A stretch of 64,000 nt of DNA from a virus, in the IMG/VR virus record IMGVR_UViG_3300017824_001452; one strand, 5' to 3'. Of this stretch, positions 1 through 49,081 are shown in pieces. The notes under the pieces were generated by a model. It was not told where the DNA came from and made no database searches. It worked only from the letters and a program-made list of their open reading frames with translations. Position 1 is the first letter of the stretch. Every line of letters starts with the position of its first letter. Position numbers and translations under genes: made by a program.

Positions 1-3000
1 GGGGAATCAATGAGTTTAATTCAACAACAGGAGCATTTACAGCAAAAGCACCAATCGTTATCTCTGACTCTACTTTAGTGTCAATAGGTACACCTCTACA
101 ATCAGTAGGAAATATCGGTGACTATGCAGTAGTTGCTATACCTAATTATAGAAACCCTAACAATGACAATGCACCTACATATTGGTACAAGAATCGTCAG
201 AATACATGGGTTGGTTTAGATTCAGTAGACTGGTTCAAGGCATGGCCTTCAATCACTTGTCCTACTTCTAATCCTACATTAACACAAGGCGATACAATCG
301 ACTTGATCGTTAACGGTACAAACTTAGCACAACTTACTGTATCAGCGGCTCCTAACAACACTATTTCTCAGTTAGCGGCAGACATTAACTCATTAGGTTG
401 GGAATATGTTTCAGCGGCAGTAGTTGATAACAAACTTGAAGTTTATTCTTCACAGACAGGTGGAGATCAAGGTAGTTCAAACGTACCATTCTACATTAGA
501 TTTGCTAACGCAACAGGTACTATCTTTACAGACTTAGGATTTACAGGTACTAACGTAACTGGCTTCCAACCAAGAGCATTATATGGTACATCTGCTCAAC
601 AGCCATTATGGCAATCAGGACAGGCTCAGCCTGCTCCGACTGGCTCTGTATGGATTAAGGTTGACGGAACAGGATTACAACCAGTAATTTCTGAATATGA
701 TTCTACATCATCTTCATATACTGCTAAAACACCTACTTTTGCAGACTCTGATTGGGCACAAATCTATTCAGCAGACTCAACAGGTGGACAAGCAATTCCA
801 GCAGGAAGTGTTTATGCACAATATGGATTTAACGGTGAGTACACAGCGGCTCCAGTATACTACTTCTATAGAGTAGCAACAGGTGCAACAGTAATTAATG
901 GTACAAACACTGCACCAGACTTTACTTCAGGACCATATGTAGCAAGAGTTCAGATTTCAACTCCAGGTTCACAAACATTAAGTACCCCTTATACATTTAA
1001 CTTGGGTGATGCAACTGATGCATCTGACTTTGTAACTGCATGGTCAGCGGCGAACATTCCTTACACTTCAGCAAGTGTAAACGATGATGGTTCAATTCAA
1101 ATTCAACACACTTCAGGTGGTGTTATTATCTTAGATGATTATGACAACGTAACAGGTGTATCTTCTGGTTTATTCTCAGAAGCCGGCTTTACAACTGCAA
1201 CAGCAGGTTGTAAGACAGGACCATTCAGAGATGATATCTCATTTACTCCTACTCAGAGTTCTACATCAGGGTCAGGTACTGCATTATCAATCGCAGTAAC
1301 TAATGACTATGGTTATTATGACTTTGATCCGGATGCAGTAGTAAACGGCGGTACAGGTCATGCTGTAGGTGACGTAGTTACTTTCTCAGGTGCAGACTTG
1401 GGCGGTGCTTCACCAGCAAATGACTTACAAGTAAAAGTTACAAGTGTTACAGCAGGCGTTGTTACATCTTATACTTTAAGTACAGGTACAGGCGCAGATG
1501 CGTTCACAACTCAGTTGTCTAACTGGAGAGAGTTCTCATTAACAACTTCAGGTGCTGATTCATTAACAGCAAACGAAGGTGCTCCGACTGCAATACCTAG
1601 CAACTTTACTAACTGGTACTATTCAACAACTGATCAAGTAGATATTATGATCAACTATGACGGTAATTGGAAGGGTTATAGCCAACAAGGTTATGATGGT
1701 AATGGTTTACCTAGCCCATCAGTCGTAAATGCAACTGATCCTAATGGACCTATCGTAACTGCTAGTGAGCCTACTACTCAAAGTGACGGCACACCATTAG
1801 TATACGGTGATCTTTGGTTAGATACTTCTGACTTAGAAAACTATCCGTTACTTTACAGATGGCAGTCAGTACAAGCAACAGGTGGCGGTAGTGCTACTGA
1901 TAAGTGGGTCTTAATTGACAACTCAGATCAAACTACACCACAAGGTATCTTGTTTAAAGATGCACGTTGGGCAACTAACGGAACAACTAACCCAGCAAAT
2001 GATCCGATGCCGACCATCAAATCATTGCTAGGAAGTGATTACTTAGATGTTGATGCTCCGTTATCATCAAATTACCCACAAGGTATGTTGCTTTGGAACA
2101 CAAGACGTTCTTCATACAACGTGAAGCAATATCGTGTAAACTACTTTAACAACGACAGATTCCCGAATGACACTTTACCAACACAGAAAGATGCATGGGT
2201 ATCTGCTTCAGGTGATGCATCTAACGGTGCAATGAATGCAGGTCGTAAGGCACAAAGAGCAATGGTAACACAAGCATTACGTTCAGCAATTGACTCTAAC
2301 GTTGCAATTAGAGACGAAGATAACTACTTCAACTTACAAGCAACACCGGGTTATCCTGAACTACAACCTAACATGATCGCATTGAACTCTGATAGAGGTG
2401 AGACTTCTTACATTGTTGGTGATACACCAATGAGACTGAAAGATGATGCAACTGAAATTCAGGCTTGGGCAACTAACGCCGCAGGTGCAACAACTACAGG
2501 TGAAGATGGACTTGTAAGTAGAAATACTTATATGGGTCTATTCTACCCATCAGGTATCACTAGTGATCTATCAGGTAACTTAGTTGCTGTTCCTTCATCA
2601 CACATGATGGTCAGAACTATGTTGCGTAATGACAATATTGCTTATCCTTGGTTAGCACCAGCAGGTACTAGACGTGGTATAATCGATAATGCTACAAGCA
2701 TCGGATACATCGATGACGAAGGCGAGTTTAACTCAATCAGAACACGTATTGGAATTAGAGATGTGTTATACACTAACTTTATTAACCCAATGGTATTCTT
2801 TACAGGTAATGGATTATTGAACTATGGTAACAAAACTTCATTTGATTCATCATCTGCATTAGACAGAGTAAACGTAGCAAGATTAGTTGCTTACATACGT
2901 AGACAATTAATATTAGCCGCGAGACCATTTGTCTTTGAACCTAATGACCCTCAAACAAGAAAATCTATTAAAGCAGTAGTAGAATCATTGTTCCAGGATC

Positions 3001-3179
3001 TAGTTTCAAAACGAGGATTATATGACTACTCAGTAGTTTGTGATGATTCTAACAACACTCCAGCAAGAATTGATCGAAATGAACTTTGGATTGACATAGC
3101 AGTAGAGCCCGTGAAAGCCGCTGAGTTTATCTACGTTCCGGTCAGAATATTCAACACTGGTGAGTTATCAGGATCTTAA
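1..3179 (+). CDS. Contractile tail sheath protein (T4 gp18-like), 5'-truncated by the window edge
   Basis: The frame is open from nt 3, so the true start is upstream. The C-terminus has sheath motifs (PWLAPAGTRRG, RVNVARL, FVFEPND, VCDDSNNTPARIDRNELWIDIAVEPVKAAEFIYVP) and a tube gene follows. Confidence 0.95.
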   Translation, partial: GINEFNSTTGAFTAKAPIVISDSTLVSIGTPLQSVGNIGDYAVVAIPNYRNPNNDNAPTYWYKNRQNTWVGLDSVDWFKAWPSITCPTSNPTLTQGDTIDLIVNGTNLAQLTVSAAPNNTISQLAADINSLGWEYVSAAVVDNKLEVYSSQTGGDQGSSNVPFYIRFANATGTIFTDLGFTGTNVTGFQPRALYGTSAQQPLWQSGQAQPAPTGSVWIKVDGTGLQPVISEYDSTSSSYTAKTPTFADSDWAQIYSADSTGGQAIPAGSVYAQYGFNGEYTAAPVYYFYRVATGATVINGTNTAPDFTSGPYVARVQISTPGSQTLSTPYTFNLGDATDASDFVTAWSAANIPYTSASVNDDGSIQIQHTSGGVIILDDYDNVTGVSSGLFSEAGFTTATAGCKTGPFRDDISFTPTQSSTSGSGTALSIAVTNDYGYYDFDPDAVVNGGTGHAVGDVVTFSGADLGGASPANDLQVKVTSVTAGVVTSYTLSTGTGADAFTTQLSNWREFSLTTSGADSLTANEGAPTAIPSNFTNWYYSTTDQVDIMINYDGNWKGYSQQGYDGNGLPSPSVVNATDPNGPIVTASEPTTQSDGTPLVYGDLWLDTSDLENYPLLYRWQSVQATGGGSATDKWVLIDNSDQTTPQGILFKDARWATNGTTNPANDPMPTIKSLLGSDYLDVDAPLSSNYPQGMLLWNTRRSSYNVKQYRVNYFNNDRFPNDTLPTQKDAWVSASGDASNGAMNAGRKAQRAMVTQALRSAIDSNVAIRDEDNYFNLQATPGYPELQPNMIALNSDRGETSYIVGDTPMRLKDDATEIQAWATNAAGATTTGEDGLVSRNTYMGLFYPSGITSDLSGNLVAVPSSHMMVRTMLRNDNIAYPWLAPAGTRRGIIDNATSIGYIDDEGEFNSIRTRIGIRDVLYTNFINPMVFFTGNGLLNYGNKTSFDSSSALDRVNVARLVAYIRRQLILAARPFVFEPNDPQTRKSIKAVVESLFQDLVSKRGLYDYSVVCDDSNNTPARIDRNELWIDIAVEPVKAAEFIYVPVRIFNTGELSGS

Positions 3180-6031: not shown

Positions 6032-6517
6032 ATGACAAAGAAACTTGAAGAATTATTTGATATTGCATCCAGTGAAGAAAATGAACTGAATGAACCTATT
6101 CCAGGGGTAGCAGAAGAAGTTACTAAAGAAGCATTGACTAATTTAGAAAAGATTGAAACTGCTTTACCTACAGTAAGAGGACTAGAAGCATCAGACAGAG
6201 AAATGGATGAACTGAGTAAGAAAGCAGAAACTAGTTTCCAAGACTTAATGGACTTAGGAATGCAAGTTGATTCACGTTTTAGCGGAGACATTTTTAGTGT
6301 TGCTAGTAATATGTTAAATCATGCTATAACCGCTAAAACTGCTAAGTTAAACAAGAAGTTAAAGATGATTGATCTACAATTAAAGAAAGCAACATTAGAT
6401 CAACGTCAAGCAAAAATGGAAGAAAAAATAGATAATATACCTTTAGGGGACGGTGCTCAAAATTTAGACCGCAATGAATTACTACGAGTATTAACGTCAA
6501 AAAACACAGAGGAATGA
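6032..6517 (+). CDS. Probable terminase small subunit (gp16-like)
   Basis: Helical 161-aa protein with IFSVASNML and a C-terminal DRNELL, reminiscent of gp16. TAAATA lies at 6021-6026, just upstream. Assignment is an inference. Confidence 0.45.
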   Translation: MTKKLEELFDIASSEENELNEPIPGVAEEVTKEALTNLEKIETALPTVRGLEASDREMDELSKKAETSFQDLMDLGMQVDSRFSGDIFSVASNMLNHAITAKTAKLNKKLKMIDLQLKKATLDQRQAKMEEKIDNIPLGDGAQNLDRNELLRVLTSKNTEE

Positions 6518-6545: not shown

Positions 6546-7172
6546 ATGAAAAGTTTAAAACATTACATTGCAGAGTCAGTCCACACTTATGATTGCACAA
6601 TCAAACTTGCTGGTGACTGTAGTAAAAATTTCTTAGAGTTATTTAAACATAACTTAAATAAGTTTGAGCCTAAATCAATTAAAGGGCCAACTTCAACTCC
6701 TATTATGAAATCACCATATGGTTTTCCTAATTTATCAAACGAACCAGTACACATCTTTAAGTGTGAGTTTGCATATCCCGTAACAGAACCAATGGTACAA
6801 CAATTAGCACAATTGTTAGGTCACAATATTAATTACGTAAGAATGGTCAATACAGCATTTGATGATAGCATCGATAAAGAACTTGTCGGCTACGAAAATG
6901 AAATGAAAGACACACCTCTCTTACAAAATGAAGAAATGAATGACAATGGAAAAGAAGCCAGTGAAGAATATGGTGATAAGTACTTAGACAGCATTCATAA
7001 ACATGCAGAACATAAAAACGTAGGTAAAGTAGGTTTGCCTGCTGATCAAAAGAACACTAAAGATGCTTTTGATCCTTGGAAGCCATGGTCAGATGATTCA
7101 ATTAAAGGTCAAAAGAGTCCGATGACTGACGTTAAAAGAGGACCCAAGCCTGAAACATCAGCAGGGTACTAA
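6546..7172 (+). CDS. Putative internal head protein with capsid-targeting-like N-terminus
   Basis: MKSLKHYIAE resembles the T4 internal-protein CTS (MKTYQEFIAE). Late promoter GATAAATA at 6516-6523. Confidence 0.55.
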   Translation: MKSLKHYIAESVHTYDCTIKLAGDCSKNFLELFKHNLNKFEPKSIKGPTSTPIMKSPYGFPNLSNEPVHIFKCEFAYPVTEPMVQQLAQLLGHNINYVRMVNTAFDDSIDKELVGYENEMKDTPLLQNEEMNDNGKEASEEYGDKYLDSIHKHAEHKNVGKVGLPADQKNTKDAFDPWKPWSDDSIKGQKSPMTDVKRGPKPETSAGY

Positions 7173-7182
7173 GGAAGACATT

Positions 7183-10100
7183 ATGGATTTTAAAGACATC
7201 TTAAACAAATTCGACAAAGCATCAAAAGAAGAATCTATTGTCGAAACTACTCCTAAAAGACCAGCAAACATGTTGACTGAATCAACAGAGTCTGGTGAAG
7301 TTGTAGAAGTTGTTGAAGGAGTTCAAGTACCTTCATTAAAAAATATGTTTGAAGAACTTTCACTAGAACCAGCAAAGCCTGGTGCACAAACAATTCATAA
7401 AGACGGTGAAGTAATCGGAACTGTTTCTAATCCAGCAGTTGCTAATCAAATGTCACAAGCAATCGACAAAGGCGAATTACAAATCGGTCAAGAAATGCAA
7501 GAAGCAGAACAACTTGACGAACTTGCTCCTTTAGCGGCATTAGGGCCAGCACTTATGACTGGTGCTAGAGTGGCAGGTCCTTGGTTAGCAAAACGTGGCG
7601 CTCAAATGATTAGTGGAGTCGCCAGAGGCGCAGGTAACTATGCTAAAAAGAACCCAATCAAAACTGCTGTAGGTACAGGGGTAGCCGGCACAGAGCAAGG
7701 TAGAGAACTTGCAGGCAACGTCAAAGACGGCGCTGTCGGAATGTATAACTTAACCAACACAACATTTGAAAAAATGAATGATATGATCGATTCAGGTAAA
7801 CACACGTTTGACCAAGCCTCTCAAAAAATTGCAGACTTAGGTGACGGCGCAGGTGGTATGATTAGAGGCGCAATCGGTGATGCCGCATTTGATACAGTTA
7901 AAAGAACAGCATCAACATATGGTCTTCCTTTACTAGCCGCAGTAGCATTACTATACGGCGGAAAGAAAGTTTTAGATAAAGTAATGGACAAAGACGAAGA
8001 TACTGTTAGAGAAGCAAAAGATTGGATCTCGGGTGCTATCAAAGACCCAGGTGCATTCTCAGCAAAAGCAAAAAGACATGGAATGACAACTAAAGCATTT
8101 GCTAATCACGTATTAGCAAACAAAGATGATTTCCCTGCAAAAACAGAAAAACAAGCAAATCTTGCTAAAACATTAGGCAAGATGAAAGAGGGCGAAATGC
8201 CCCCACAAGGTCCAGGACAAGCATCTCCTTTAACATTTGAAGGTGCTCAAAATCCACCGGATGACGGTTCACATAATTCATCTAACGATGAAAAAGGCAA
8301 CGCCGCGGCAAACGCCGCATTGGCAGCCAACGATGCTGATACACCGCAACTTGTAAAAGAAAAAGCAAAAGGTAAAGTAAGCAAGTCGAGTAAATTACCT
8401 AGTATTTCAAAAGTGAAATCTATGTGTAACGAAGGGCTGTCTACTAAAGAAATACAACAACTGCACCCTAAGTGCAACCAACAAGAACTTAATATTATGA
8501 TTAAAAATACTAAAACAAACTTAAAAGAAGGCGCAGATCACATTCTGAAGGCCGCAAAGCACATGGGTCATGCTCATGGTTTATGTAAAGGATCTTATGC
8601 ATGTCCACATGATGCAGGTTCTGAAGGTGCAAGAGCATACCACGAAGGCTACAAAAAAGGTCTTGACGAAGCATGTGGCATGGGAATCAAAAACGAACCA
8701 ATCGCAGGTATGGAAGAAGGCGTACTCGGTGGAGTAGGCGGTGCTATTGCAGGATCTAAATTAGGTGGCATGGCAGGCACAGCAATCGGTGGTTCAATCG
8801 GTGGCGTTCCTGGAGCAACTATAGGTAAGGCAGCAGGCGCGGCACTAGGTGGAATCGCAGGTGATAAATTAACAGGCGACGGCATCTTTGAAGAACCAGC
8901 AGATGAAGTTGTAGATACTATGGCATCTTACGGTGCAATGGGCGAAGCAGAATCTTCACCAGACGGAGACGTTGGTGCTGATGATGACGGTGCATATGAC
9001 AAATATGACTGGGACGCACAAACTGTAGCACGTAAAGGCATTGACGAAGATGAAATGGAAGAAGGTAATGCATTTACAGGCGCAATGGCAGGAAAAGAAA
9101 AAGGTGAAAAGTTCACAGTAGGCGACAAAACATTTACAAAAACATCAGAAGCCGCTACATTAGAAGAAGATGAGTGGACTTTTGAGTCTTTAGAAAAAGA
9201 ATTAAACTCACACTTAGTCGAAAGCACAGAAGAATCAAAAGAACAACTTGACGAAGGCTATACAATGTCTATTACTCAAGGCGAAGAAAATCAGCCAGAC
9301 AGAGTAAGTGTTAATGCCACAGATGCAGAAGCAGACAAGTTAATCAAGTTTGTTAAAGACGTAGGCTTAGGTAACTATGGTGATGCAGAAGTATTAGATG
9401 CACCAGGTGAAGTTGCAGACGTATCATTTTATGGTAGCCCTGAAGTAGAAGTAGAGCCTCAAAGTTCACACGATGACATGCTCAAGTTAATGGGTATTGT
9501 AGACGTAGACGGTGACTATGAAGATGAAGTAGAAGCACCCGGCGTAACAGACGTTGACGTACAAGTAGATGAAAAGTCATGTGACGAATGTGGTGGCGGA
9601 CATAGCATGGAAGAAGGCTGTGGAGACAAAGCATACGAAGATCAAGGTTATGATGACAAAGAAGATGAGTCATTAGGTATGAGAACTGGTAAAGAATCAG
9701 GTAAAAAACAGTCTATGAAAGACCGTAGAGATGATTCTTATGGTAAGTTCGGTAAACGTGACTCTGAACATAGAGATGTTTCATTAGAAGAACAAGAAAA
9801 AGATGCAGGATTATACGACAAGTATGATTGGGACGCATCTACAGTTGCTAAAAAAGGCATTGACGAAGAATCTGATGCTGAAAGAGACGATCATGCAGAA
9901 CGTGCAGGTAAAGAAGTTGCACGACACGCAAAGTACGACGGTCGTAAGCACCCAGGAAGAGATGGTGAAGACATCGTTAAAGATTTAGAATACGATGACT
10001 GGAAAGATAAGCATCATATGGAAGAAGATCAAGGCTATGATGACAAAGAAGATGAGTCATTAGGTATGAGAACTGGTAAAGAGTCTGATAAGAAGCAAAG

Positions 10101-10926
10101 TATGAAAGATCGTAGAGATGATTCATATGGTAAGTTTGGTAAGAGAGATGAAGAACATAGAGAAAAATCTTTAGAAGAAACTCTTGCTCAGTTAGATGAA
10201 CTTGCTCAGTTAGATGAAAAGCAAGGTTATGATGACAGAGAAGACGAACAACTAGGTATGAAAGACGGCAAAGAATCTGATAAGAAACAATCAATGAAAG
10301 ATCGCCGTGATGATTCACGTGGTAAGTTTGGTAAAAGAGATAAAGAAGATGACAATAAACCTCGTTCTTTAGAAGAAAATCTTAGAACTTTAGACTTATT
10401 AGCAGAAGTAGGCGCAGAAACTTCAGAAGAACCTACTCAACCATTATCACAACATGATGATGAGAGACTTTTAACTAAAGAAGGCGCAGAGGATGCCCCT
10501 AAGGACTCTATAAACGATGGTGAGAACGAAGAAATCACTGAGATGGAAACTGATGCTCAAAGAGAATTCAAAGTAGCAGAAGGTGAAGATAAGCCAGACT
10601 TTGCTGACATCGATGATGATGGCGACAAAGATGAGTCTATGAAAAAAGCCGCTAAAGATAAGAAAGAAAAAGTTGATGAATGGGCAAATGATGCAGGTAA
10701 GAAAGGTACTGATACAGCATTTGAACAAGACATTGAGTTTATGACTAAAGTTATCTCTGGTGGTCTTAACAAGCAGAAGTCAACAGGTCAAACAACTATC
10801 CCAGTTATTGCTGGTCAAGAAGACAGAATGGGATATAATGGTGCTGACGTTGTTAAAGAGGGTTCTGTTGTTTCATCTAATGGATTCGCAACTATTTTAA
10901 ACAAGTTAGATAGTATCAAAGAATAA
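7183..10926 (+). CDS. Acidic modular polyprotein, putative protease-processed internal head protein (1247 aa)
   Basis: Short modules are separated by LDE/VKE/LKE/MEE/IDE/VDE sites. It has internal repeats, a glycine zipper and an EF-hand-like DIDDDGD. Confidence 0.6.
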   Translation: MDFKDILNKFDKASKEESIVETTPKRPANMLTESTESGEVVEVVEGVQVPSLKNMFEELSLEPAKPGAQTIHKDGEVIGTVSNPAVANQMSQAIDKGELQIGQEMQEAEQLDELAPLAALGPALMTGARVAGPWLAKRGAQMISGVARGAGNYAKKNPIKTAVGTGVAGTEQGRELAGNVKDGAVGMYNLTNTTFEKMNDMIDSGKHTFDQASQKIADLGDGAGGMIRGAIGDAAFDTVKRTASTYGLPLLAAVALLYGGKKVLDKVMDKDEDTVREAKDWISGAIKDPGAFSAKAKRHGMTTKAFANHVLANKDDFPAKTEKQANLAKTLGKMKEGEMPPQGPGQASPLTFEGAQNPPDDGSHNSSNDEKGNAAANAALAANDADTPQLVKEKAKGKVSKSSKLPSISKVKSMCNEGLSTKEIQQLHPKCNQQELNIMIKNTKTNLKEGADHILKAAKHMGHAHGLCKGSYACPHDAGSEGARAYHEGYKKGLDEACGMGIKNEPIAGMEEGVLGGVGGAIAGSKLGGMAGTAIGGSIGGVPGATIGKAAGAALGGIAGDKLTGDGIFEEPADEVVDTMASYGAMGEAESSPDGDVGADDDGAYDKYDWDAQTVARKGIDEDEMEEGNAFTGAMAGKEKGEKFTVGDKTFTKTSEAATLEEDEWTFESLEKELNSHLVESTEESKEQLDEGYTMSITQGEENQPDRVSVNATDAEADKLIKFVKDVGLGNYGDAEVLDAPGEVADVSFYGSPEVEVEPQSSHDDMLKLMGIVDVDGDYEDEVEAPGVTDVDVQVDEKSCDECGGGHSMEEGCGDKAYEDQGYDDKEDESLGMRTGKESGKKQSMKDRRDDSYGKFGKRDSEHRDVSLEEQEKDAGLYDKYDWDASTVAKKGIDEESDAERDDHAERAGKEVARHAKYDGRKHPGRDGEDIVKDLEYDDWKDKHHMEEDQGYDDKEDESLGMRTGKESDKKQSMKDRRDDSYGKFGKRDEEHREKSLEETLAQLDELAQLDEKQGYDDREDEQLGMKDGKESDKKQSMKDRRDDSRGKFGKRDKEDDNKPRSLEENLRTLDLLAEVGAETSEEPTQPLSQHDDERLLTKEGAEDAPKDSINDGENEEITEMETDAQREFKVAEGEDKPDFADIDDDGDKDESMKKAAKDKKEKVDEWANDAGKKGTDTAFEQDIEFMTKVISGGLNKQKSTGQTTIPVIAGQEDRMGYNGADVVKEGSVVSSNGFATILNKLDSIKE
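9637..10341 (+). repeat. Three ~42-aa intragenic repeats (9637-9762, 10024-10149, 10216-10341) plus an exact 18-nt tandem repeat at 10183-10218
   Basis: EDQGYDDKEDESLGMRTGKESxKKQSMKDRRDDSYGKFGKRD occurs three times (third copy diverged). cttgctcagttagatgaa occurs twice in tandem. Confidence 0.95.
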
Positions 10927-11032: not shown

Positions 11033-14000
11033 ATGGCACAAAGAAATATTGACTTCGGAGCATTCCCTGACGATCCAGATGCAGATGCAATACGATCGGC
11101 GTTTGAAAAAGTTCAGTTAAATTTTACAGAAGTATTTGCAGGACTAGGTGATCAAGCAGTTGTCTCAGTCAATAAAACTGCAGGACCTGGCATATATTTA
11201 GTTAATGGTTCTCCAGTAGGTAATGTTGTATTAGGTGCAAACATTGCTTGTGTACAGTTTTCTTCAACAACATTATCAGTAGGTCGTTCACCGGGTACAG
11301 GTCCAGGTTCTGCGACTATTACTGATTCTACTCAAACATTATATATTGATTTACCTAACACAATAGCAAACGTTACTGACGTTGTAGTATCAAATAGTGT
11401 ACAAGGCAACGCAATTATAGGTAATCTATCAGGTGATTTTGGATACGTATTAGCAAATGCATCATCTGGAAATGGTAATATAGATGCTAACAATATAACA
11501 TTGACAGGTGCTGTTGTAGCATCTAATGTTAGTGGTAATGGTGCTGGGTTATCAGCACTCACAGGTTCAAATGTAACTGGACAAGTAGGGAACGCATTAG
11601 TTGCAGGTACAGTGTACACTGCGGCGCAACCTAACATTACTTCAGTAGGAACTTTAACAACACTAGATGTAATGTCAACAGTAACTGCAACAGCATTTAC
11701 TGCAAATACAGGTTTATTTACTGGCGACGGCGGTGGTTTATCAAACATCGTTGGTGCAAATGTAACAGGAGAAGTTACTAACTCTGCGACAGCAAACGCA
11801 GTAGCAGGCGCAAACGTAAGTGGAGAAGTAGCATTCTCCGCAGTAGCAAATTCAGTAGCAGGATCAAATGTATCTGGTGCAGTCTCATTCGCAACAACTG
11901 CTAATGCAGTCGCCGGAGCAAATGTCTCTGGTGAAGTCGCATTTGCCGCTACAGCAAATAGTGTTGCTGGCGCAAACATATCAGGCGAAGTTGCATTCGC
12001 CGCTACTGCTAATTCAGTTGCAGGTTCTAATGTCAGCGGCGAAGTATCATTTGCACAAGTAGCAAATTCAGTCGCAGGTGCAAACGTAACAGGTGAAGTA
12101 AGTTTTGCAAGTACTGCAAATAGTGTTGCAGGAGCAAATGTCTCAGGCGCAGTAGCCAATGCTACACATGCATTATCAGCAGACTCAGCAAATGCAGTAG
12201 CAGGTGCTAACGTAACTGGTGAAGTAGGTTTTGCGGCTGTTTCAAATTCAGTAGCAGGATCAAATGTTTCAGGTGAAGTCGGATTTGCCGCAGTTGCTAA
12301 TAGTGTTGCTGGTGCAAATGTAACTGGTGAAGTATCAAATGCCGCAACTGCAAATGCAGTCGATGGCGCCAACGTATCGGGTACGGTTGCAAATGCTACA
12401 CATGCAACCACAGCAAATACGGTAGTTGATGCGGTACAATCAAATATTACAACTGTAGGTACATTAAGTTCATTAGATGTATCAGGCAATCTTAGTGCTG
12501 GCAATGTAACAACAACTGGTACATTTACTGGTGATGGTGGTGGTTTATCAAACATCTCTGTATCAACAGGATCTTATATCGAAAACGGTACAAGTGAAGC
12601 AAGACTTGACACTGACGGTCCTTTCAGAGTTACAGTTGGTGGAACTGCAAACGTATTACAAGTTAACAATACAGGTACAGAAGTAGCAGTAACAGGCTCA
12701 ATGTCTGTATCAGGTGGATTTGATAACAACATAGACTTTAACAGCACATCTAATTTAGGGCCAGTAGGCAACGTAACAATTACAGGTGGTGCTACTGGAG
12801 CATTCTTAATGACAGATGGCTCTGGTACTTTAACATGGGACACAGCAACTTTAGTTCCAGCACAAGGCGCAGATACACAAATTATATTCAATGACGGTGG
12901 AAGTACATATGCCGGTAACACTGGACTAACGTTCAATAAAACATCAGGTAATGTGGCAATACCAGGCAACTTAGCAGTAACAAGTGCTGTATCTGGTACA
13001 ACACTTGAAGGAAGTTTATTAACAAATGCACAACCAAACATTACAAGCCTTGGTACATTAACAAGTTTAATTTTAAGTGGTAATCTCAATACTAACAGTG
13101 ATCTTATCACTAACGCAGGTAACATTACAATTGCTAGTGGTACAGGATCATTTATAGGAAATGGTGCAGGATTAACAAATATTACAGGAGCAAACGTAAG
13201 TGAAGTTCCTTTAGCAACATTAGCAACTACTGCTACAACAGCAAACGCAGTTGCAGGTGCTAATGTATCAGGAGAAGTTCCCTTTGCACAAGTAGCCAAT
13301 TCAGTTGCTGGTGCAAATGTTTCAGGCGAAGTTGCATTCGCCGCTACTGCTAACTCAGTAGCAGGTGCTAACGTTTCTGGAGCAGTTGCAAGTGCTACTA
13401 CAGCAACAACTGCCACAACAGCAGATACCGTAACAACAGCATCACAACCCAACATCACTAGTGTTGGAACGTTATCGTCATTATCTGTTACAGGTAATGT
13501 GTCTGCAGGAAATGTATCGGGCACTGGTGGTGTCTTTACATACGTATCAGGAGATGGCGCTAACTTAACAGCAATAGACGGACAACAAGTTACAGGTGAA
13601 GTAGACTTTGCACAAGTAGCAAATAGTGTCGCAGGTGCTAATGTATCAGGGACTGTCGCATTAGCAACAACCGCAGGAACTGTGTCTACATCAGCACAGC
13701 CAAACATCACATCTGTTGGAACTTTAACAGTATTAGGTGTAAATGGTATTGTAACAGCACAATCGTTTACAGCAAATACAGGGTTATTTAACGGTGATGG
13801 TGGTGGACTATCTAATGTGGCGGCAGCCAATATTAGTGGTATAGTAGCAAACGCAACATATGCAACATCAGCAGGTAGTGCGGCATTAGCATTAGATATT
13901 ACAGGAGCAACACAACCTAATATTACTAGTGTAGGCACACTAACAAGTTTAACAGTGTCTGGTAACATAACTAACCAGACTCACATTATTAAAGATGTAA

Positions 14001-14302
14001 CAACCGCAACAGCAGGTGGCACCGATCAATCAGGAGCAACAGCATTAAGTGGAGCAGATATATTCTCAGTTACTACACCTAGCAATAACAACGGTGTTAG
14101 ATTGATGGCTGCTACTCCTGGCTTATGTATATACATCAAAAATTTAGATCCAACAGATACATTAAAAGTATATCCAGCATCTAATGATGCGATTGACGGT
14201 AACGGAACTAATGGAGCAATGTCAATAGGTCCTTTAGGACAAATTCAATTTGTAGCCCACAGTTCATCACAATGGTATACTGTCGGCGCAACATATGCAT
14301 AA
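11033..14302 (+). CDS. Tail fibre / virion filament protein with 18-aa tandem repeats
   Basis: N-terminal anchor-like motif (DAIRSAFEKVQLNFTEVF), a G/A/N/S/T/V-rich body, ANVSGEVAFAATANSVAG repeats and AQPNITSVGTL repeats. Confidence 0.8.
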   Translation: MAQRNIDFGAFPDDPDADAIRSAFEKVQLNFTEVFAGLGDQAVVSVNKTAGPGIYLVNGSPVGNVVLGANIACVQFSSTTLSVGRSPGTGPGSATITDSTQTLYIDLPNTIANVTDVVVSNSVQGNAIIGNLSGDFGYVLANASSGNGNIDANNITLTGAVVASNVSGNGAGLSALTGSNVTGQVGNALVAGTVYTAAQPNITSVGTLTTLDVMSTVTATAFTANTGLFTGDGGGLSNIVGANVTGEVTNSATANAVAGANVSGEVAFSAVANSVAGSNVSGAVSFATTANAVAGANVSGEVAFAATANSVAGANISGEVAFAATANSVAGSNVSGEVSFAQVANSVAGANVTGEVSFASTANSVAGANVSGAVANATHALSADSANAVAGANVTGEVGFAAVSNSVAGSNVSGEVGFAAVANSVAGANVTGEVSNAATANAVDGANVSGTVANATHATTANTVVDAVQSNITTVGTLSSLDVSGNLSAGNVTTTGTFTGDGGGLSNISVSTGSYIENGTSEARLDTDGPFRVTVGGTANVLQVNNTGTEVAVTGSMSVSGGFDNNIDFNSTSNLGPVGNVTITGGATGAFLMTDGSGTLTWDTATLVPAQGADTQIIFNDGGSTYAGNTGLTFNKTSGNVAIPGNLAVTSAVSGTTLEGSLLTNAQPNITSLGTLTSLILSGNLNTNSDLITNAGNITIASGTGSFIGNGAGLTNITGANVSEVPLATLATTATTANAVAGANVSGEVPFAQVANSVAGANVSGEVAFAATANSVAGANVSGAVASATTATTATTADTVTTASQPNITSVGTLSSLSVTGNVSAGNVSGTGGVFTYVSGDGANLTAIDGQQVTGEVDFAQVANSVAGANVSGTVALATTAGTVSTSAQPNITSVGTLTVLGVNGIVTAQSFTANTGLFNGDGGGLSNVAAANISGIVANATYATSAGSAALALDITGATQPNITSVGTLTSLTVSGNITNQTHIIKDVTTATAGGTDQSGATALSGADIFSVTTPSNNNGVRLMAATPGLCIYIKNLDPTDTLKVYPASNDAIDGNGTNGAMSIGPLGQIQFVAHSSSQWYTVGATYA
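11756..12400 (+). repeat. 54-nt (18-aa) degenerate coding tandem repeat, about 11-12 units; more copies near 13190-13390 and 13590-13660
   Basis: Protein periodicity [AS]NV[ST]GEVxFAxxANSVAG, with synonymous divergence at the DNA level. Confidence 0.9.
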
Positions 14303-14334
14303 TGTTTTGCATCTTTAGAAAGGATAAAAAACAA

Positions 14335-14796
14335 ATGAAATTATCAAAGAATTTTACACTCACAGAGTTTGAAAAAAGTCAAACTGCTATACGTCAGGGT
14401 TTAGATAACACTATGCCTGAAGAACATTTAGAAAATGCAAAAGCATTATGTGAAAACGTATTACAAAAAGTAAGAGATCATTTTGGACCTGTAATTATTA
14501 ATAGTGGATATCGTGGATCTGCTCTTAATAAAGCAGTAGGTGGAAGTGCAAAATCACAACACTGTAAGGGTCAAGCCGCAGACATAGAAATACATGGAGT
14601 ATCTAATTACGATCTTGCTAAATGGATTGAAAAAAATACAGATTTTGATCAAGTAATTTTAGAATTCTACACTCCGGGTATACCTGATTCAGGTTGGGTG
14701 CATGTTACTTACAATACTGCAGGTAATAGAGGCAAGTCTTTAACTGCATCTAAAGTCGATGGCAGAACACATTATTCTTTAGGTCTCACTAAATGA
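14335..14796 (+). CDS. Peptidase M15A (D-Ala-D-Ala carboxypeptidase-like, endolysin candidate)
   Basis: Motifs LSKNFTLTEF, INSGYR, SQHCKGQAAD and WVHV. The start is moved to ATG 14335 (aagga RBS upstream). Confidence 0.9.
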   Translation: MKLSKNFTLTEFEKSQTAIRQGLDNTMPEEHLENAKALCENVLQKVRDHFGPVIINSGYRGSALNKAVGGSAKSQHCKGQAADIEIHGVSNYDLAKWIEKNTDFDQVILEFYTPGIPDSGWVHVTYNTAGNRGKSLTASKVDGRTHYSLGLTK

Positions 14797-26475: not shown

Positions 26476-28758
26476 TTGAACACATCACCAGAAATTGAAA
26501 ATATTATCTCTAGGGCAATCGAAACTGCAAAGTCCTATAATCATCAGTATGTTACTATTGAGCATTTGCTTCACGCATTAGTAACACATCAACCGTTTAA
26601 AAAAGTATTAAATCAATTTAATGTTGATACTGATTTAATGATTGGTGAAATAGAAGCATACTTGAATGGATTACATGCTATCGAATCTAAAGACCCTGAG
26701 TGTGTTCCTAAGAAAACTAATTCACTAGAACGTGTAATGAATAGAGGTGTTACACAAGTTCTATTTACAGGTCGTAGACAAGTCACTACTATGGATCTGT
26801 ATCTATCGATTGCAACTGAAGGAAACACCCATGCACATTATTTCTTATTAAAGTATGGTGTAAACAAAACTCAGTTTATTGAATTTTGGCAAAAGAATTA
26901 TAGACATCAGGATAGTCAAAACATCAGTCAAGACCAAGCAGATGATATTTTAGAAGAATACACAACTAATTTAACTAAATTGGCTAGAGACGATAAACTA
27001 GAACCTGTCATAGGACGTGTGTCTGAAATTGATGACATTATTAATGTTCTAGCAAAACGTTTTAAAGCAAACGTATTAATGGTAGGTGATCCGGGTGTAG
27101 GTAAAACAGCAATTGCAGAAGGTATTGCACAAGCAGTTGTTAACAAAGAAGTACCCGAGTTCTTAGACGGACATGAAGTCTATTCATTAGAGATTGGTAA
27201 CTTACTTGCTGGATCAAAATATCGCGGTGAGTTTGAAGAAAAAGTTAAAGAAGTCATTATGGCTTTAGAAGTTAAAAAGAATTGTATCTTATTCATTGAC
27301 GAAGCCCACACTATGGGAGGCGCTGGATCAACATCGAATGGCTCAGTTGATTTTGCAAACATGATTAAGCCTGCTATTACTAAAGGAACTCTCAAAGTAA
27401 TCGCATCTACTACATGGGAAGAATACTATGAATCGTTTGAAAAAGACAGAGCCCTCATGCGTAGATTCTATCGTGTTTCAATTGATGAACCTTCACATGA
27501 TACTACAATTAGAATTTTACGTGGTTTATCCGATAGATTAAATGACTTCCACGATGTCAACATTACAGAAGATGCAATCGAAGCCGCAGTTGAAATGGCT
27601 GACAGATACATACACGAAAGAAAGAATCCAGATAAGTCTATTGACTTACTTGATGCCGCTTGTGCAAAGCAACGTGTAGCAGAAAACAAAGGTGTTGATA
27701 TCACTAAGACATTGATTTTTGATCAAGTAGAGAAGTTCACAGGCGTTCCTGCTGACAAACTTAAAGGTGATAATGTAGATCGTATTACTAACTTAGACGT
27801 TAATGTTAAAAGTAAGTTGTATGGTCAAGATGATGTAGTTGATAATGTAATCGAAAGAGTTTATGTATCGTTTGCAGGAATCGGCAACGAAACTAAACCT
27901 ATCGCAAGTTTCTTATTTTTAGGACCAACAGGCACGGGAAAAACAGAATTGGCTAAACTGCTGTCTAGTAACTTAGATATGCCACTGCTCAAATACGATA
28001 TGTCCGAGTATTCTGAGAAACACAGTGTAAGCAGTTTGATAGGACCTCCCCCGGGTTATGTAGGTTTTAGTGATTCACAAGTACAAGGCGGACGTTTGAT
28101 ATCAGACTTAAGTAAACAACCTCATTCAATCATGTTGTTTGATGAAGTTGAGAAAGCACACCCTGATATCTTTAATATTTTCTTACAGATGTTAGACGAA
28201 GGTACGATCACTGGGTCTAATGGTAAGCAAGTATCATGTAAGAACTGTTTAATCATTCTCACATCTAACTTAGGTAGTGCAGACGGAGAACGTTCAAACA
28301 TCGGATTCGGTGATACGGACAAAGTAGGCGAAGATGAAAAAGCAATGAAAAACTTCTTTAAGCCAGAGTTTAGAAATAGACTTGACATGGTTTGTAAGTT
28401 TGGTAAACTTGATAAACTATCTATTAAAAAGATTGTTGTTAAATTTGTTGCTGACCTACAAAAAGCACTGCTTGATAAACATAATATCACTCTTAACTTT
28501 AGTGAAGATGCAGTTGATTACTTAGCAGACGTAGGTTATGATAGCAAGTTGGGAGCAAGACCATTAGCAAGAAAAATTGATGAACTTGTAAGAGTCCCAT
28601 TGAGTAAAAAGATTTTATTTGAGAAAATCAAAGATGCTAATGTCATGTGTGTTATTGATCCAGACACTGGAGAGATTGATTTTGCTTCAACGAAAAAACA
28701 GGTTGCTCAAGTAGGTGACGATGGTATCATTGAAGTAGAAGATTCAGACAACATATAA
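26476..28758 (+). CDS. clpA: ClpA-like Hsp100 AAA+ ATPase
   Basis: Clp N-domain (IEHLL) and two AAA modules (GDPGVGKT/FIDEAH; GPTGTGKT/FDEVEKAH), with PPGYVG and GARPL. No long ClpB middle domain. TTG start after gagga. Confidence 0.92.
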   Translation: MNTSPEIENIISRAIETAKSYNHQYVTIEHLLHALVTHQPFKKVLNQFNVDTDLMIGEIEAYLNGLHAIESKDPECVPKKTNSLERVMNRGVTQVLFTGRRQVTTMDLYLSIATEGNTHAHYFLLKYGVNKTQFIEFWQKNYRHQDSQNISQDQADDILEEYTTNLTKLARDDKLEPVIGRVSEIDDIINVLAKRFKANVLMVGDPGVGKTAIAEGIAQAVVNKEVPEFLDGHEVYSLEIGNLLAGSKYRGEFEEKVKEVIMALEVKKNCILFIDEAHTMGGAGSTSNGSVDFANMIKPAITKGTLKVIASTTWEEYYESFEKDRALMRRFYRVSIDEPSHDTTIRILRGLSDRLNDFHDVNITEDAIEAAVEMADRYIHERKNPDKSIDLLDAACAKQRVAENKGVDITKTLIFDQVEKFTGVPADKLKGDNVDRITNLDVNVKSKLYGQDDVVDNVIERVYVSFAGIGNETKPIASFLFLGPTGTGKTELAKLLSSNLDMPLLKYDMSEYSEKHSVSSLIGPPPGYVGFSDSQVQGGRLISDLSKQPHSIMLFDEVEKAHPDIFNIFLQMLDEGTITGSNGKQVSCKNCLIILTSNLGSADGERSNIGFGDTDKVGEDEKAMKNFFKPEFRNRLDMVCKFGKLDKLSIKKIVVKFVADLQKALLDKHNITLNFSEDAVDYLADVGYDSKLGARPLARKIDELVRVPLSKKILFEKIKDANVMCVIDPDTGEIDFASTKKQVAQVGDDGIIEVEDSDNI

Positions 28759-37307: not shown

Positions 37308-40300
37308 ATGCTCTCTAGTCATTTTGAAAGCATACTACTAGAATACAAACAAAGCATCACTGCTAAAAAGATGGGTGAAGGCCTTGTCGGCCGTTTTAAT
37401 TTAGATATAATAGATTTTCCTAGTCTGTTGACTCCTAAACTTACAAAAGCATTTGAAACAATGGAGCAACTTGACGTTCAAATAACTGATTTTGAGAATA
37501 AAAAAGAACAGAACGAAATCAAACCCGAAGAACTAGCCAAGTTACAACCTAAAATACAAAAAGCACAAGAACAATATAACATTTTAGAAAATCAAATAGC
37601 CGTTCATATCTTAGAAAAGTTAGAAGCCGCAGACCCTACAAACAATAAAGGTTATGTACAGTGGTTAGCACGATTGTATATCAATGGTGAAACAAGTTTA
37701 GAAGATGTAGAATCTACTATTGCTGATTACTTAGATAAGTTTCATAAATTAAAAATTAAACGTCATTTGTCTAATGCAGACATAGGACAATATAAAGATT
37801 TTGATGCGTTTATGAATGATATGGATCAATATCCTAATGACGTTTTAGATGATGATGAAGCAAAAAACAAAACATATAAAGCAGACAAAATATATGATGA
37901 AAATGGCGTCTTAATTATTCATCCAAAAGACAAAGAAGCGGCATGTCGATATGGTCGCGGAACTCGTTGGTGTACAGCCTCAACACGAGGACACAATTAT
38001 TTTGCTTCATACAATCGTAGAGGACCTCTCTATATATTTGTCCCACGCAAACCAGATCATCCAGGAGAAAAATATCAGTTTCATTTTGAAGACAACGTAG
38101 TTGCAGACGAAACAGATGCTTATTTGGATCAGGATCAATTAATTCGTTTAGTAAATAGATACCCAGCACTTAAAGATGCCTTTCAACCACAAGCAGAAAA
38201 GTACGGTCTTATATATCTACAAAAACCGAAAAGAGTTATGAAAGGTTCTAACTTTACAGTAGAAGAATACAGAAAAAATGATAAGCCTTTATATTTGATG
38301 TTAGGAGAAATGGATGTAGATGGTGAATATGGCAAACAAGACATATACATGCTATGGAAAAAAGATCCCAATGATGATAACTACCAAATTAAAAAAATCG
38401 GTAATAGTAGATATAGAGATGATACAACATTAAACGTATTAGAACAGCACAAATTAGTTAATAAATATCCTGAACTAATTAGTAAATTTGGATTAAAAAC
38501 AAAACACCTTAAAAAAGATCCTACTCGGAGCCAAACAAAATCGGGTGCTGATATAGAGATGCATGGGACGACCGCTGTTCTTAAAGACAAGCAAGGTCAT
38601 AGCACATCAATAGAACTAAGAGATCCAGACAAGAGCCGGATTGGAGATGATAAACTATTAGTACATACACAGAAAACAAATCCTTTTACATCAAAGGATA
38701 AAAAAGAGATTAGAGATCAGATTAATCCTTTTGAAGTAACGTTAGAACATCCTGAACTTATTGATTTGTATTCTCCTCTATTAGATAAAAAAATTAAACA
38801 TGAGGTCCGGCAACATCATGGTGATGCCAAAGATAAAAGAAAATTTAAAGAAGACTTATATCAAAAATATGCACCTTTAATGCCTTACAAACTATATGAC
38901 AAAGGTGATGTAATAATTAAAAGTCACGTAACTCCAGACGGAAAACCTATCTTAGACTATATAATTACAAAAGATAATGATAAAGAAACAAATGCAATAA
39001 CAGTAGTTTATCGTAATCAACGAGATGGCAATGTTGATAAAATTATACAAGCAGAGCCTAGACCATTATATGATTTAGCAGATGAAGAAGACTATAATCT
39101 GAGAACTCCAGCCGGAGATATCTATGGTAATGCAGAAGAAGAATCTAAATATCAACGTTATTATCAAAGGATGAATGATTCCTTTCGATCATCAAACGCA
39201 TTACCCTTTTTACCTTCAATTTCTATTATAGAAAAATATCCTGGTTTAAAAGAATTATACAAGGACACTTCTTTAGCATCACCTAAAACAAAAGAAGTAT
39301 CAAATGCCAACGTAAAAGATTTTGGAAAAACAAAACGTGAATCAAACAAACGATCATATTATAGAAATGACTGGCATGATACCACAGCAGAAACAATGCG
39401 TAACTTTATTGTTCAACCCAAAGATGCAGAAGAAGGTGAATCATATGCCATTAGTTGGAGTCCAGAAATTCCTCAATTAAGTGAAATTTATCATTCTGCT
39501 TCAGACGGTACTCAGACAAAGATAGGGGACAAGCAAACTAAAAGACATGTTTTAAAAAGTTTTCCTGAAATCAGAGCATTACAAATAAAAGACTGGGATA
39601 AATTTATTAAAAATAATCCTGAGTATGATGTTAAAGAACATGGCGCAGGTGACAGCAGTTATAATGATGATATATTACAAGATTGGAGTTTTTCGCCCAC
39701 AGAGGTTGTTGATAATGATCGTGTAATAGTATCACAGTTCGGACCCAAACAAGGAGACCCCTTCCAACTACCTAGTTTTGAAGTTTTTCCTAAACAAAAA
39801 AATCCATTTGGTAAAGTAGGAGATACATTTTTTATTTACTTAAGTTTAAAAGATTATCGCGGCAAGTCAGGAAAAATTAGTGACATTAGAATAGAACGTA
39901 TCGGGAAAAACACTCATCATTTTGTACCTGTTAATAAATATGGTAGGACTGAAAAACAGGGCAATGAAGATTTTGTACAAGCCGGAGTTCAATTAAGAGA
40001 AAATCAATATAGTTTAGACTCTAAAGAAATTATCGATTTCTTTAAATACTATCCTGAATTAAGAGGAATGATTAAAGATGAAAATGTACATCCTAAAGTT
40101 CCGCATCCAGCACTTGCAAAACAACCAGAAGATTCTTCAGAAAATGTTCAGCAAATGGACGGATTTAAATTAGAAAAACAAACAACAAATGATCCTAACT
40201 TAGACAAATACTTTATTGTACCAGATGAAGAAAAATACCCCGGTGAGTATTATACTATGTTTGAGTATCATCCTTTAAAAACAAATCCATTAGGAAAATC

Positions 40301-49070: not shown

Positions 49071-49081
49071 TAAATATTAAT

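Follow-up and report, generated by a model that had tools for sequence, protein, structure and literature searches.

A modular, hypervariable jumbo-phage protein family with candidate prohead-protease sites and a scaffold-like C-terminal tail

Comparison with processed head proteins of other phages

T4 provides the precedent: gp21 cleaves at L/I-X-E, cargo bears capsid-targeting sequences, and core proteins are cut at several points, after which most of their fragments leave the head. The internal proteins and Alt of T4 are ejected, and they then act on the host (PMC9026906). The inner-body and ejection proteins of phiKZ, 201phi2-1 and SPN3US are cut after Glu, at short motifs and redundant sites (PMC9026906). 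Here we analyse a protein family represented by one open reading frame in a 64,000-nt stretch (the window) of the virus record IMGVR_UViG_3300017824_001452. Our ORF call returned the same boundaries as the first-pass annotation of this DNA.

7183..10926, + strand: ORF of 1247 aa; modular, acidic and mostly disordered; the hypervariable gene within a conserved block of structural genes

Like T4 gp22, gp67 and gp68, the family is acidic, has many L/I-x-E-type sites (below, hxE denotes [ILVM]xE and hxD denotes [ILVM]xD) and, as seen in related genomes, belongs to phages with a gp21-type protease. The same hxE excess is seen in the scaffold of the lineage, whose tail the family shares. Family members differ from the T4 proteins in having no sequence homology beyond that tail, in being 3–5 times longer, in consisting of mostly disordered mini-modules of hypervariable content rather than a coiled coil, and in being encoded in a tail-gene block that does not adjoin the protease. 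Identification by homology as a scaffold or prohead core protein (gp22-like) was rejected because only the KLAG(I/L)K tail is shared and the gene lies far from that of the protease.

With T4 IPI–III and Alt the family has in common a short conserved N-terminal leader, LxE-terminated in distant members, neighbouring ORFs with short hxE-terminated leaders, and a fast-evolving locus. T4 internal proteins, however, are single, small, folded and cut once or twice, whereas the family chain, a candidate for packaging and ejection, comprises ~20 modules with many candidate sites. The head proteins of phiKZ, 201phi2-1 and SPN3US resemble the model proposed below in their Glu-terminal short motifs and redundant sites, but that clade uses the motif S/A/G-x-E and a different, diverged protease, and we detected no homology to the family. 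In PA5oct, the position of the family gene, after homologues of a 161-aa and a 208-aa gene, is taken by gp203 (EST35_0203), a virion protein by ESI-MS/MS. An acidic protein of 498 aa compared with 1247 aa, it carries three motifs of the LAG(V/I/L) type, after which come acidic stretches of the hxE type. Homology to gp203 was rejected, as BLASTP gave no significant similarity (best E 2.3).

The gene, its family and its modules

ORF 7183–10926 is a real, conserved gene, with >1000 metagenomic homologues, every one named 'hypothetical'. Synteny around it is retained in 18 loci, and its flanking genes are 75–100% identical (most at least 95%) compared with 81% identity plus indels for the ORF itself. 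It sits within a fixed sheath–tube–gp4-like block, with sheath, tube and tube-like genes upstream and a fibre-like gene downstream. The sheath, ClpA-like ATPase and neighbouring genes of this jumbo phage are similar to those of PA5oct and Atu_ph07, and its relatives reach ~333 kb. Only 10 nt separate the start codon of the ORF from the stop codon of the upstream neighbour (arrows here and below follow the Glu of an hxE site):

6546..7172, + strand: upstream neighbour, 208 aa, with leader MKSLKHYIAE↓S, ending in I-x-E

The first 86 aa of this neighbour align with PA5oct gp202 (29% identity, E 2e-8), which is annotated as 'structural protein, ESI-MS/MS'. Short hxE-terminated leaders are carried by window ORFs 6546, 33300, 35843, 44323 and 46802. 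Against isolate phages, tblastn with the whole protein matched solely the phrog_20603 module in Thermus phages, and with the C-terminal 98 aa gave no match at E ≤ 1. An ESM Atlas search returned unnamed viral clusters only (scores < 0.8), and a PDB sequence search only a glycine-zipper likeness to SlyB (E 0.31). The T4 late-promoter motif TATAAATA was not enriched, and none occurred near ORF 7183–10926. AF2 models of the protein in two halves, both of low confidence (mean pLDDT 41 and 45), consist mostly of disorder or coil, with a few mini-folds. The following elements lie along the chain:

7183..7281, + strand: N-terminal leader MDFKDILNKFD... (aa 1–33), up to the conserved MLTE↓S site
7504..8013, + strand: optional hydrophobic Gly/Ala-rich helical module (aa 108–277)
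8014..8190, + strand: 59-aa phrog_20603 module, with VRE↓A and MKE↓G at its edges
8362..8670, + strand: two helical Cys/His modules (aa 394–449 and 450–496), with LKE↓G between them and LDE↓A at the end
8719..8946, + strand: optional glycine-zipper hydrophobic module (aa 513–588)
9064..9168, + strand: mobile 35-aa mini-fold GNAFTG...FTVGDKTF, a helix plus beta-hairpin running from MEE↓G to LEE↓D
9469..9501, + strand: conserved internal motif HDDMLKLMGIV (MMGLMRKLSGI in distant members), resembling the scaffold C terminus
9640..9792, 10027..10179 and 10219..10377, + strand: three copies of a 51–53-aa charged unit, QGYDD.EDE.LGM..GKES.KKQSMKDRRDDS.GKFGKRD...SLEE↓
10183..10218, + strand: LAQLDE twice, an exact 18-nt tandem duplication (TRF period 18, 2.0 copies, 100% match)
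10681..10923, + strand: C-terminal domain WANDAGKKGT...ISGGLNKQKSTGQTTIPVIAGQ..., after VDE↓W, with tail ...ILNKLDSIKE

The leader is conserved family-wide and is a candidate capsid-targeting propeptide. Its form in distant members is MDF(K/R)xhLxxhxxLxE↓, ending in LxE at about residue 15, and the first hxE sites of the 1247-aa protein, IVE21 and LTE33, are retained in 37% and 53% of aligned homologues, respectively. Module presence was compared among ORF 7183–10926 (Q) and homologous loci numbered L001 upward. The aa 108–277 module is present in Q, L001–L004 and L010 and absent as a block from L005, L007, L009, L011 and L012; it weakly matches the tape-measure segment phrog_1535 (E 0.013). 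Identification of the whole chain as a tape measure protein was rejected on the length variation among close relatives and the predicted disorder, the PHROG matches being weak and limited to hydrophobic segments. A profile match (E 4e-18, positions 2–57 of 59) assigns the next module, on its sequence, to the small phage protein phrog_20603. It shares 47–51% identity (tblastn) with Thermus phages P23-45, P74-26 and G20c, the matches falling mostly in genes annotated as 'hypothetical protein', and the VRE↓A and MKE↓G around it are retained at 96–97%.

The two Cys/His modules are modelled as helical (pLDDT 57–72, AF2). LKE449, which lies inside a modelled helix, is retained at 100% and LDE496 at 93%. 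An RMF-like identity suggested earlier for aa 450–496 was abandoned: the resemblance is a short pattern only, and a Pfam scan, in which HMMER filters drop most matches above ~0.1, listed no family, RMF included, at E ≤ 5. The aa 513–588 module, which matches PF05433 below the family cut-off (E 0.0014), differs in presence and length between near homologues. The GNAFTG mini-fold (pLDDT 83–91, AF2) recurs in L053, L054 and L056, where its position and number of copies differ, and within a 346-aa open frame on L058, always after DEMEE↓G. Conservation in the HDDMLKLMGIV columns is 0.89 for H, 0.90 for D, 0.94 for M, 0.94 for L and 0.76 for G. As the exact 18-nt duplication encodes LAQLDE twice, it represents a duplicated candidate cleavage linker. 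Towards the C terminus, aa 1166–1217 are among the most strongly conserved between distant family members, and of 19 distant homologues compared, 13 are 67–85% identical over aa ~1156–1226.

Family members differ by whole modules, repeat number and module order, with lengths of 1122–1432 aa among those whose C-terminal regions are 88–95% identical. The 51–53-aa unit is found in 0–5 copies across the family, and other modules are interspersed among its three copies here. Copies 1 and 2 are separated by 14 synonymous and 4 non-synonymous codon differences; the unit is under purifying selection. The first-pass annotation held that duplicated modules start and end exactly at sites. This is so for copies 2 and 3 (MEE↓ or LDE↓ to SLEE↓) and for the IDE↓ at the end of both YDKYDWD units, but copy 1 carries an 8-aa prefix after MEE↓. 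Matches to modules among shorter proteins, sought as possible stand-alone versions, were many on short contigs, and several were paired pieces of a single contig; they are therefore not evidence that modules stand alone.

Candidate cleavage sites and the scaffold-like tail

The 1247-aa protein contains 35 hxE sites compared with 23 expected from shuffles (z 2.9), a comparison that the first-pass annotation had proposed. hxD is not enriched (24 compared with 23), with D as common as E, and neither Exh nor hxxE is enriched in the same shuffle comparison. In 40 diverse homologues the ratio of observed to expected was 1.54 for hxE and 0.73 for hxD, compared with 1.16 and 1.19 in the window's background ORFs, which makes the enrichment modest in size but specific to the family. 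The DNA polymerase has an hxE z of 2.6. The same grammar had been proposed for ORFs 29350, 32566/32647, 33300, 37308 and 49067, but their pooled ratios (hxE 1.29, hxD 1.25) cannot be told from background. The 'dozens' of sites also proved too many, as ~10–15 of the 35 are well conserved, among them those with Glu at 277, 336, 449, 496, 691, 1120, 1133, 1166 and 1226.

In the family, the Glu of hxE is retained at 0.69 compared with 0.53 for other Glu, and its conservation relative to flanks is +0.23 compared with 0.00. Swaps from E to D affect 3.8% of hxE Glu and 10.9% of other Glu (p 8e-5), and P1′ is G, S or A after 46% of hxE but 17% of hxD. hxE and hxK are jointly retained to the same degree (0.58 and 0.57), so the hxE signal is not unique, and the hydrophobic P3 is kept no better than other hydrophobic residues. 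Upstream of the 51–53-aa unit, hxE ends 0–2 aa before QGY in 28 of 44 distinct contexts, compared with 3 of 44 for hxD; the separators bracketing the repeats vary (MEE, MHE, LEE, LDE, VDE) while h and E are kept. Breakpoints of module gain and loss are also enriched at the sites, as predicted: 96 of 580 indel edges lie ≤1 aa from hxE compared with 52.7 expected (1.8x), whereas 27 lie within 1 aa of hxD compared with 32.6 expected. hxE could be an intrinsic part of modules, as the mini-fold's DEMEE-G cap might be, in which case breakpoints at hxE could merely mirror module edges or aligner behaviour.

No protease gene is present in this 64-kb window. PF03420 (the T4 gp21-type prohead protease) was found in PA5oct and in G002, G003 and G004, which are related virus records carrying family members. 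In the related genomes the PF03420 protease is followed by a scaffold and a gp23-type capsid protein; in the coordinates of G002–G004 the family gene is distant from both the protease and the scaffold, amid the tail-gene block. A 217-aa gp21-type protease of a related genome is encoded at L062:1441–2094, and a capsid protein at L067:1342–2538. The lineage scaffold has 26 hxE sites compared with 11.6 expected (z 5.2) and 7 hxD compared with 4.8, and four hxE sites are conserved in the N-terminal propeptide of the capsid protein, of which the final one is LAE↓S or LVE↓N. The description of the family's sites as prohead-protease-like is thus partly supported, by the gp21-type protease, hxE-rich scaffold and hxE-bearing capsid propeptide of related genomes and by the selectively conserved Glu, few E-to-D swaps and G/S/A-biased P1′ of the family itself.

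A newly found feature is the resemblance in sequence between KLAG(I/L)K, with which most family members end, and the C terminus of the scaffold. Most of the distant family members end in DW(K/A)KLAG(I/L)K, and scaffolds in ..DIKRLAGL or ..ELRRLAGIK, with a similar tail on the scaffold of the cultivable phage PA5oct; among the ORFs of the loci examined, this ending is common only to the family and scaffolds. In the subgroup of ORF 7183–10926 the tail, NKLDSIKE, has diverged from KLAGIK. A literature search for the RLAGL/KLAGI motif returned only noise.

Proposed role and competing explanations

The scaffold-like ending and the head-protease-like sites make it probable that the protein enters the young capsid and is cut up there. 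More specifically, and with confidence at about even, we favour a prohead-loaded, protease-processed cargo or scaffold-accessory protein. The N-terminal MDFKxhL leader would help to dock it in the prohead core, as may the scaffold-like KLAG(I/L)K tail and the internal LKLMGI copy. A gp21-type protease would then cut a subset (~10–15) of hxE↓(G/S/A) sites, which would free modules, and the fragments might be expelled, like most T4 gp22, gp67 and gp68 pieces, or kept and ejected. Besides the site statistics, the ending shared with scaffolds, the hxE-terminated leaders of other window ORFs and the presence of PA5oct gp203 in virions speak for this role. Weighing against it are the location of the gene in a tail-gene block, the absence of homologues from isolate phages in the tblastn searches, the equal retention of hxK and the ordinary retention of P3, the hxE z of the DNA polymerase, the chance that hxE is intrinsic to modules, the diverged tail of this subgroup and the placing of LKE449 inside a modelled helix.

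It is unlikely that the product instead stays uncleaved in the virion, as a tape-measure-like or membrane-inserting protein of the tail lumen or of an ejection apparatus, with hxE serving as a linker or helix cap. The gene does follow the sheath, tube and tube-like genes and precede the fibre-like gene, and Gly-rich hydrophobic modules are weakly tape-measure- or tail-lysin-like (phrog_1535, 1047 and 794; E 0.002–0.06). Those modules are optional, however, the chain is acidic and disordered with no long helix, and the 1122–1432-aa range among members with near-identical C-terminal regions (88–95%) is incompatible with a length-ruler role; the scaffold-like tail and the E-specific conservation would also be left unexplained.

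Less probable still is that the hxE pattern has no specific function and merely results from composition and duplication in a disordered protein under little constraint. The modest whole-protein excess (z 2.9) is matched by the DNA polymerase, repeats duplicate their own ends and hxK is retained as well as hxE, all of which would suit such an origin. It accords poorly with hxD being unenriched despite D being as common as E, with the avoidance of E-to-D change, the P1′ bias and separators that vary yet keep h and E, or with a signature that is stronger still in the scaffold.

Least probable is the full model of the first-pass annotation, a packaged polyprotein whose peptides would be kept and co-injected with the DNA as an evolvable host-directed effector library: all points for cleavage count towards it, as do the hypervariable gene inside a conserved block, the module shuffling and varying copy number, the purifying selection on the repeat peptide, modules that look functional (Cys/His motifs, a glycine zipper, phrog_20603 shared with Thermus phage DNA) and the example of the T4 internal proteins and Alt, whose ejection lets them act in the host (PMC9026906), but no module has an identified activity, the Pfam scan listing no RMF match, the chain is mostly predicted to be disordered, fragments of multiply cut T4 core proteins mostly exit the head (PMC9026906) and conserved sites number only ~10–15. 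Similarly doubtful is a 'cassette carrier', a prohead-docked chain that would enter the capsid by a scaffold-mimicking tail and from which the head protease would release, through a fixed hxE↓G grammar, interchangeable small peptides and mini-domains that reach the host along with the DNA; the insertion of a module between two sites would then suffice to add cargo.

If a prohead-loaded, protease-processed role is true, an abundant uncultivated clade of jumbo phages would have made the T4 capsid-loading and cleavage rule into a modular carrier, built from a leader for targeting, a scaffold-like tail for docking and protease sites that recur along the chain. Such a role would also provide two simple, testable rules for recognizing packaged proteins in metagenomes, namely hxE↓G/S/A sites and a scaffold-shared KLAG(I/L)K tail, and would account for how giant phages diversify the contents of their heads. 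Were the fragments only expelled, the protein would still be an unusually large, fast-evolving scaffold accessory.

Genomic setting of a hypervariable gene

The window is a jumbo-myovirus fragment with T4-type core genes. Two of its proteins, the sheath and a ClpA-like ATPase, share 38-45% identity with their counterparts in Sinorhizobium phage Phosso, Agrobacterium phage Atu_ph07 and Pseudomonas phage PA5oct. The gene analysed here encodes a modular protein within the following setting.

Genes of the window discussed here
78-3179: tail sheath, 1033 aa, then tail tube and tube-like protein
between the tube-like and 161-aa genes: gp4-like head-completion protein with a TnsA-like domain
6032-6517: 161-aa protein, 38% identical to PA5oct gp201; weak DUF7929 match, below cut-off
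from 6546: 208-aa protein, between the 161-aa and modular-protein genes
7183-10926 (+): modular protein, 1247 aa, 3' of the 161-aa and 208-aa genes and 5' of the fibre-like gene
11033-14302: fibre-like protein, 1089 aa, largely 18-aa (54-nt) repeats of the type GANVSGEVxFAxxANSVA
14272-14796: peptidase/lysin, 174 aa, phrog_894; start overlaps the fibre-like gene end by 31 nt
26476-28758: ClpA/ClpB-like AAA+ ATPase, phrog_4871 (E 3e-234), common to Atu_ph07, Phosso and PA5oct

The window ORFs scanned included no ClpP-like gene. Antisense to the fibre-like repeats run long spurious ORFs of 407 and 464 aa. The 208-aa protein is similar at its N-terminus to PA5oct gp202, which mass spectrometry places in the virion. 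At the position equivalent to the modular protein, PA5oct encodes another virion protein, gp203, which lacks BLASTP similarity to it but is likewise acidic and bears three LAG(V/I/L)-type motifs.

Relatives of the modular protein were found at 58 IMG/VR loci (667-1325 aa, contigs up to 359 kb), and more than 1000 were present in the protein database (686-1432 aa, several on contigs of about 333 kb), every one unnamed or 'hypothetical'. None of the isolate phages searched carries a homologue, save for a 59-aa module (phrog_20603) that matches Thermus phage DNA, mostly under an annotated hypothetical protein. Gene order from the sheath to beyond the fibre was preserved in 18 of 18 loci checked. 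Between close relatives, identity is 95-100% for most flanking genes but 81% for the modular protein, which is riddled with indels, indicating a hypervariable gene inside a conserved structural block.

Modular architecture and candidate cleavage sites

The first-pass annotation described beads on a string, a fair picture of this protein. Near homologues vary by whole blocks: a 170-aa hydrophobic module and a glycine-zipper module are each present or absent, some members contain extra modules, and a charged 51-aa unit occurs in 0-5 copies per family protein. In distant homologues the modules recur in changed order. AlphaFold2 with family alignments put the mean pLDDT of the halves at 41 and 45, and only three parts look ordered: aa 629-654 (helix and hairpin, pLDDT 83-91), aa 400-500 (helical, 57-72) and aa 694-728 (56-62). 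Between repeat-unit copies 1 and 2, 14 codon differences are synonymous and 4 non-synonymous, so the peptide is under selection.

The proposed separators, [ILVM]xE (hxE), are candidate prohead-protease sites, as T4 gp21 cleaves after Glu at L/I-X-E (PMC9026906). Their proposed enrichment held against shuffled controls (35 versus 23, z 2.9), with the Asp control hxD flat (24 versus 23). Observed/expected ratios for hxE and hxD were 1.54 and 0.73 in 40 diverse relatives, and 1.16 and 1.19 in background window ORFs. The same grammar had been proposed for ORFs 29350, 32566/32647, 33300, 37308 and 49067; these gave 1.29 and 1.25, so a specific signal is absent there.

Across 116 relatives, each below 75% identity, Glu of hxE was retained more often than other Glu (0.69 versus 0.53), exceeded its ±10-residue flanks in conservation (+0.23 versus 0.00) and was less often replaced by Asp (3.8% versus 10.9%, p 8e-5, a value that overstates independence because homologues share phylogeny). 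No such effect was found for Asp of hxD in the relatives. Retention of both motif residues together is no different for hxE (0.58) than for hxK (0.57), and no special conservation is seen at the hydrophobic position. G, S or A follows 46% of hxE, 17% of hxD and 24% of non-hydrophobic-xE. The best-kept sites (93-100% retained; arrow, candidate cut) are VRE↓A277, MKE↓G336, LKE↓G449, LDE↓A496, LDE↓G691, ITE↓M1120, VAE↓G1133, VDE↓W1166 and VKE↓G1226. Separators 5' of the repeat unit differ (MEE, MHE, LEE, LDE, VHE, FDE, VDE), with a hydrophobic residue and Glu both constant.

Module breakpoints are enriched at these sites: across 290 distinct indels (580 edges), 96 edges lay within 1 aa of hxE against 52.7 expected (hxD, 27 against 32.6), an excess that could be inflated because aligners favour gaps beside conserved anchors.

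Protease, scaffold and candidate targeting signals

A Peptidase_S77 (T4 gp21) protease is encoded in PA5oct and in three related virus records with family members; behind it come a scaffold of 365-368 aa and a capsid protein of the gp23 type. None of these genes was found within the 64-kb window. In the scaffold, hxE occurs 26 times where 11.6 are expected (z 5.2), and hxD is not in excess. Within the first 45 residues of the capsid protein lie four conserved hxE sites, of which the last (LAE↓S or LVE↓N) comes just before the region preceding a conserved VGVQPM block. Directly upstream of the protease gene, at the T4 gp67/gp68 position, two related loci encode a very acidic 251-270-aa protein (L062:604-1359, L061:592-1404), enriched for hxD (13 versus 7.8) but not hxE.

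Scaffolds end in ..DIKRLAGL or ..DIRRLAGL (..ELRRLAGIK in PA5oct), and the majority of distant family members in ..DW(K/A)KLAG(I/L)K or ..(K/R)LSG(I/L)K. Of the ORFs of 80 aa or longer in the loci retrieved, none outside the scaffolds and this family has such an ending. The protein's own subgroup carries a diverged tail, ..ILNKLDSIKE, and the family keeps an internal HDDMLKLMGI or MMGLMRKLSGI. EDIKRLSG(V/L)xE, the same motif as the C-terminal scaffold ..DIKRLAGL of related genomes, lies inside window ORFs 37308-43373 (aa ~1952) and 49067-50341 (aa ~119 and ~235), with an hxE site after each occurrence. This likeness between family and scaffold tails is a new clue, from which we infer that the two may share a docking partner in the prohead.

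The capsid-targeting sequence of T4 internal proteins spans 10 residues (PMC9026906). Short leaders ending in hxE on unrelated window ORFs suggest, from sequence, a possible set of capsid-targeted proteins.

Leaders ending in hxE, by ORF start
6546: MKSLKHYIAE
33300: MSSILRGLNE
35843: MRLRELQE
44323: MKSRDFRKLNE
46802: MRATEFISE
about 50341 (internal ATG): MRINEILTE

We consider it most likely, at about an even chance, that the protein is loaded into the prohead and processed by a protease, as cargo or as a scaffold accessory. T4 gp22, gp67 and gp68 each yield several gp21-cut fragments, most of which exit the head (PMC9026906). The first-pass annotation goes further, to effector peptides injected as a library; this is possible but improbable, finding no support in the present analysis. 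A tape measure was rejected, given lengths of 1122-1432 aa among members with 88-95% identical C-terminal regions and the predicted disorder. A processed cargo or scaffold-accessory protein would vary the T4 paradigm without introducing a new principle.
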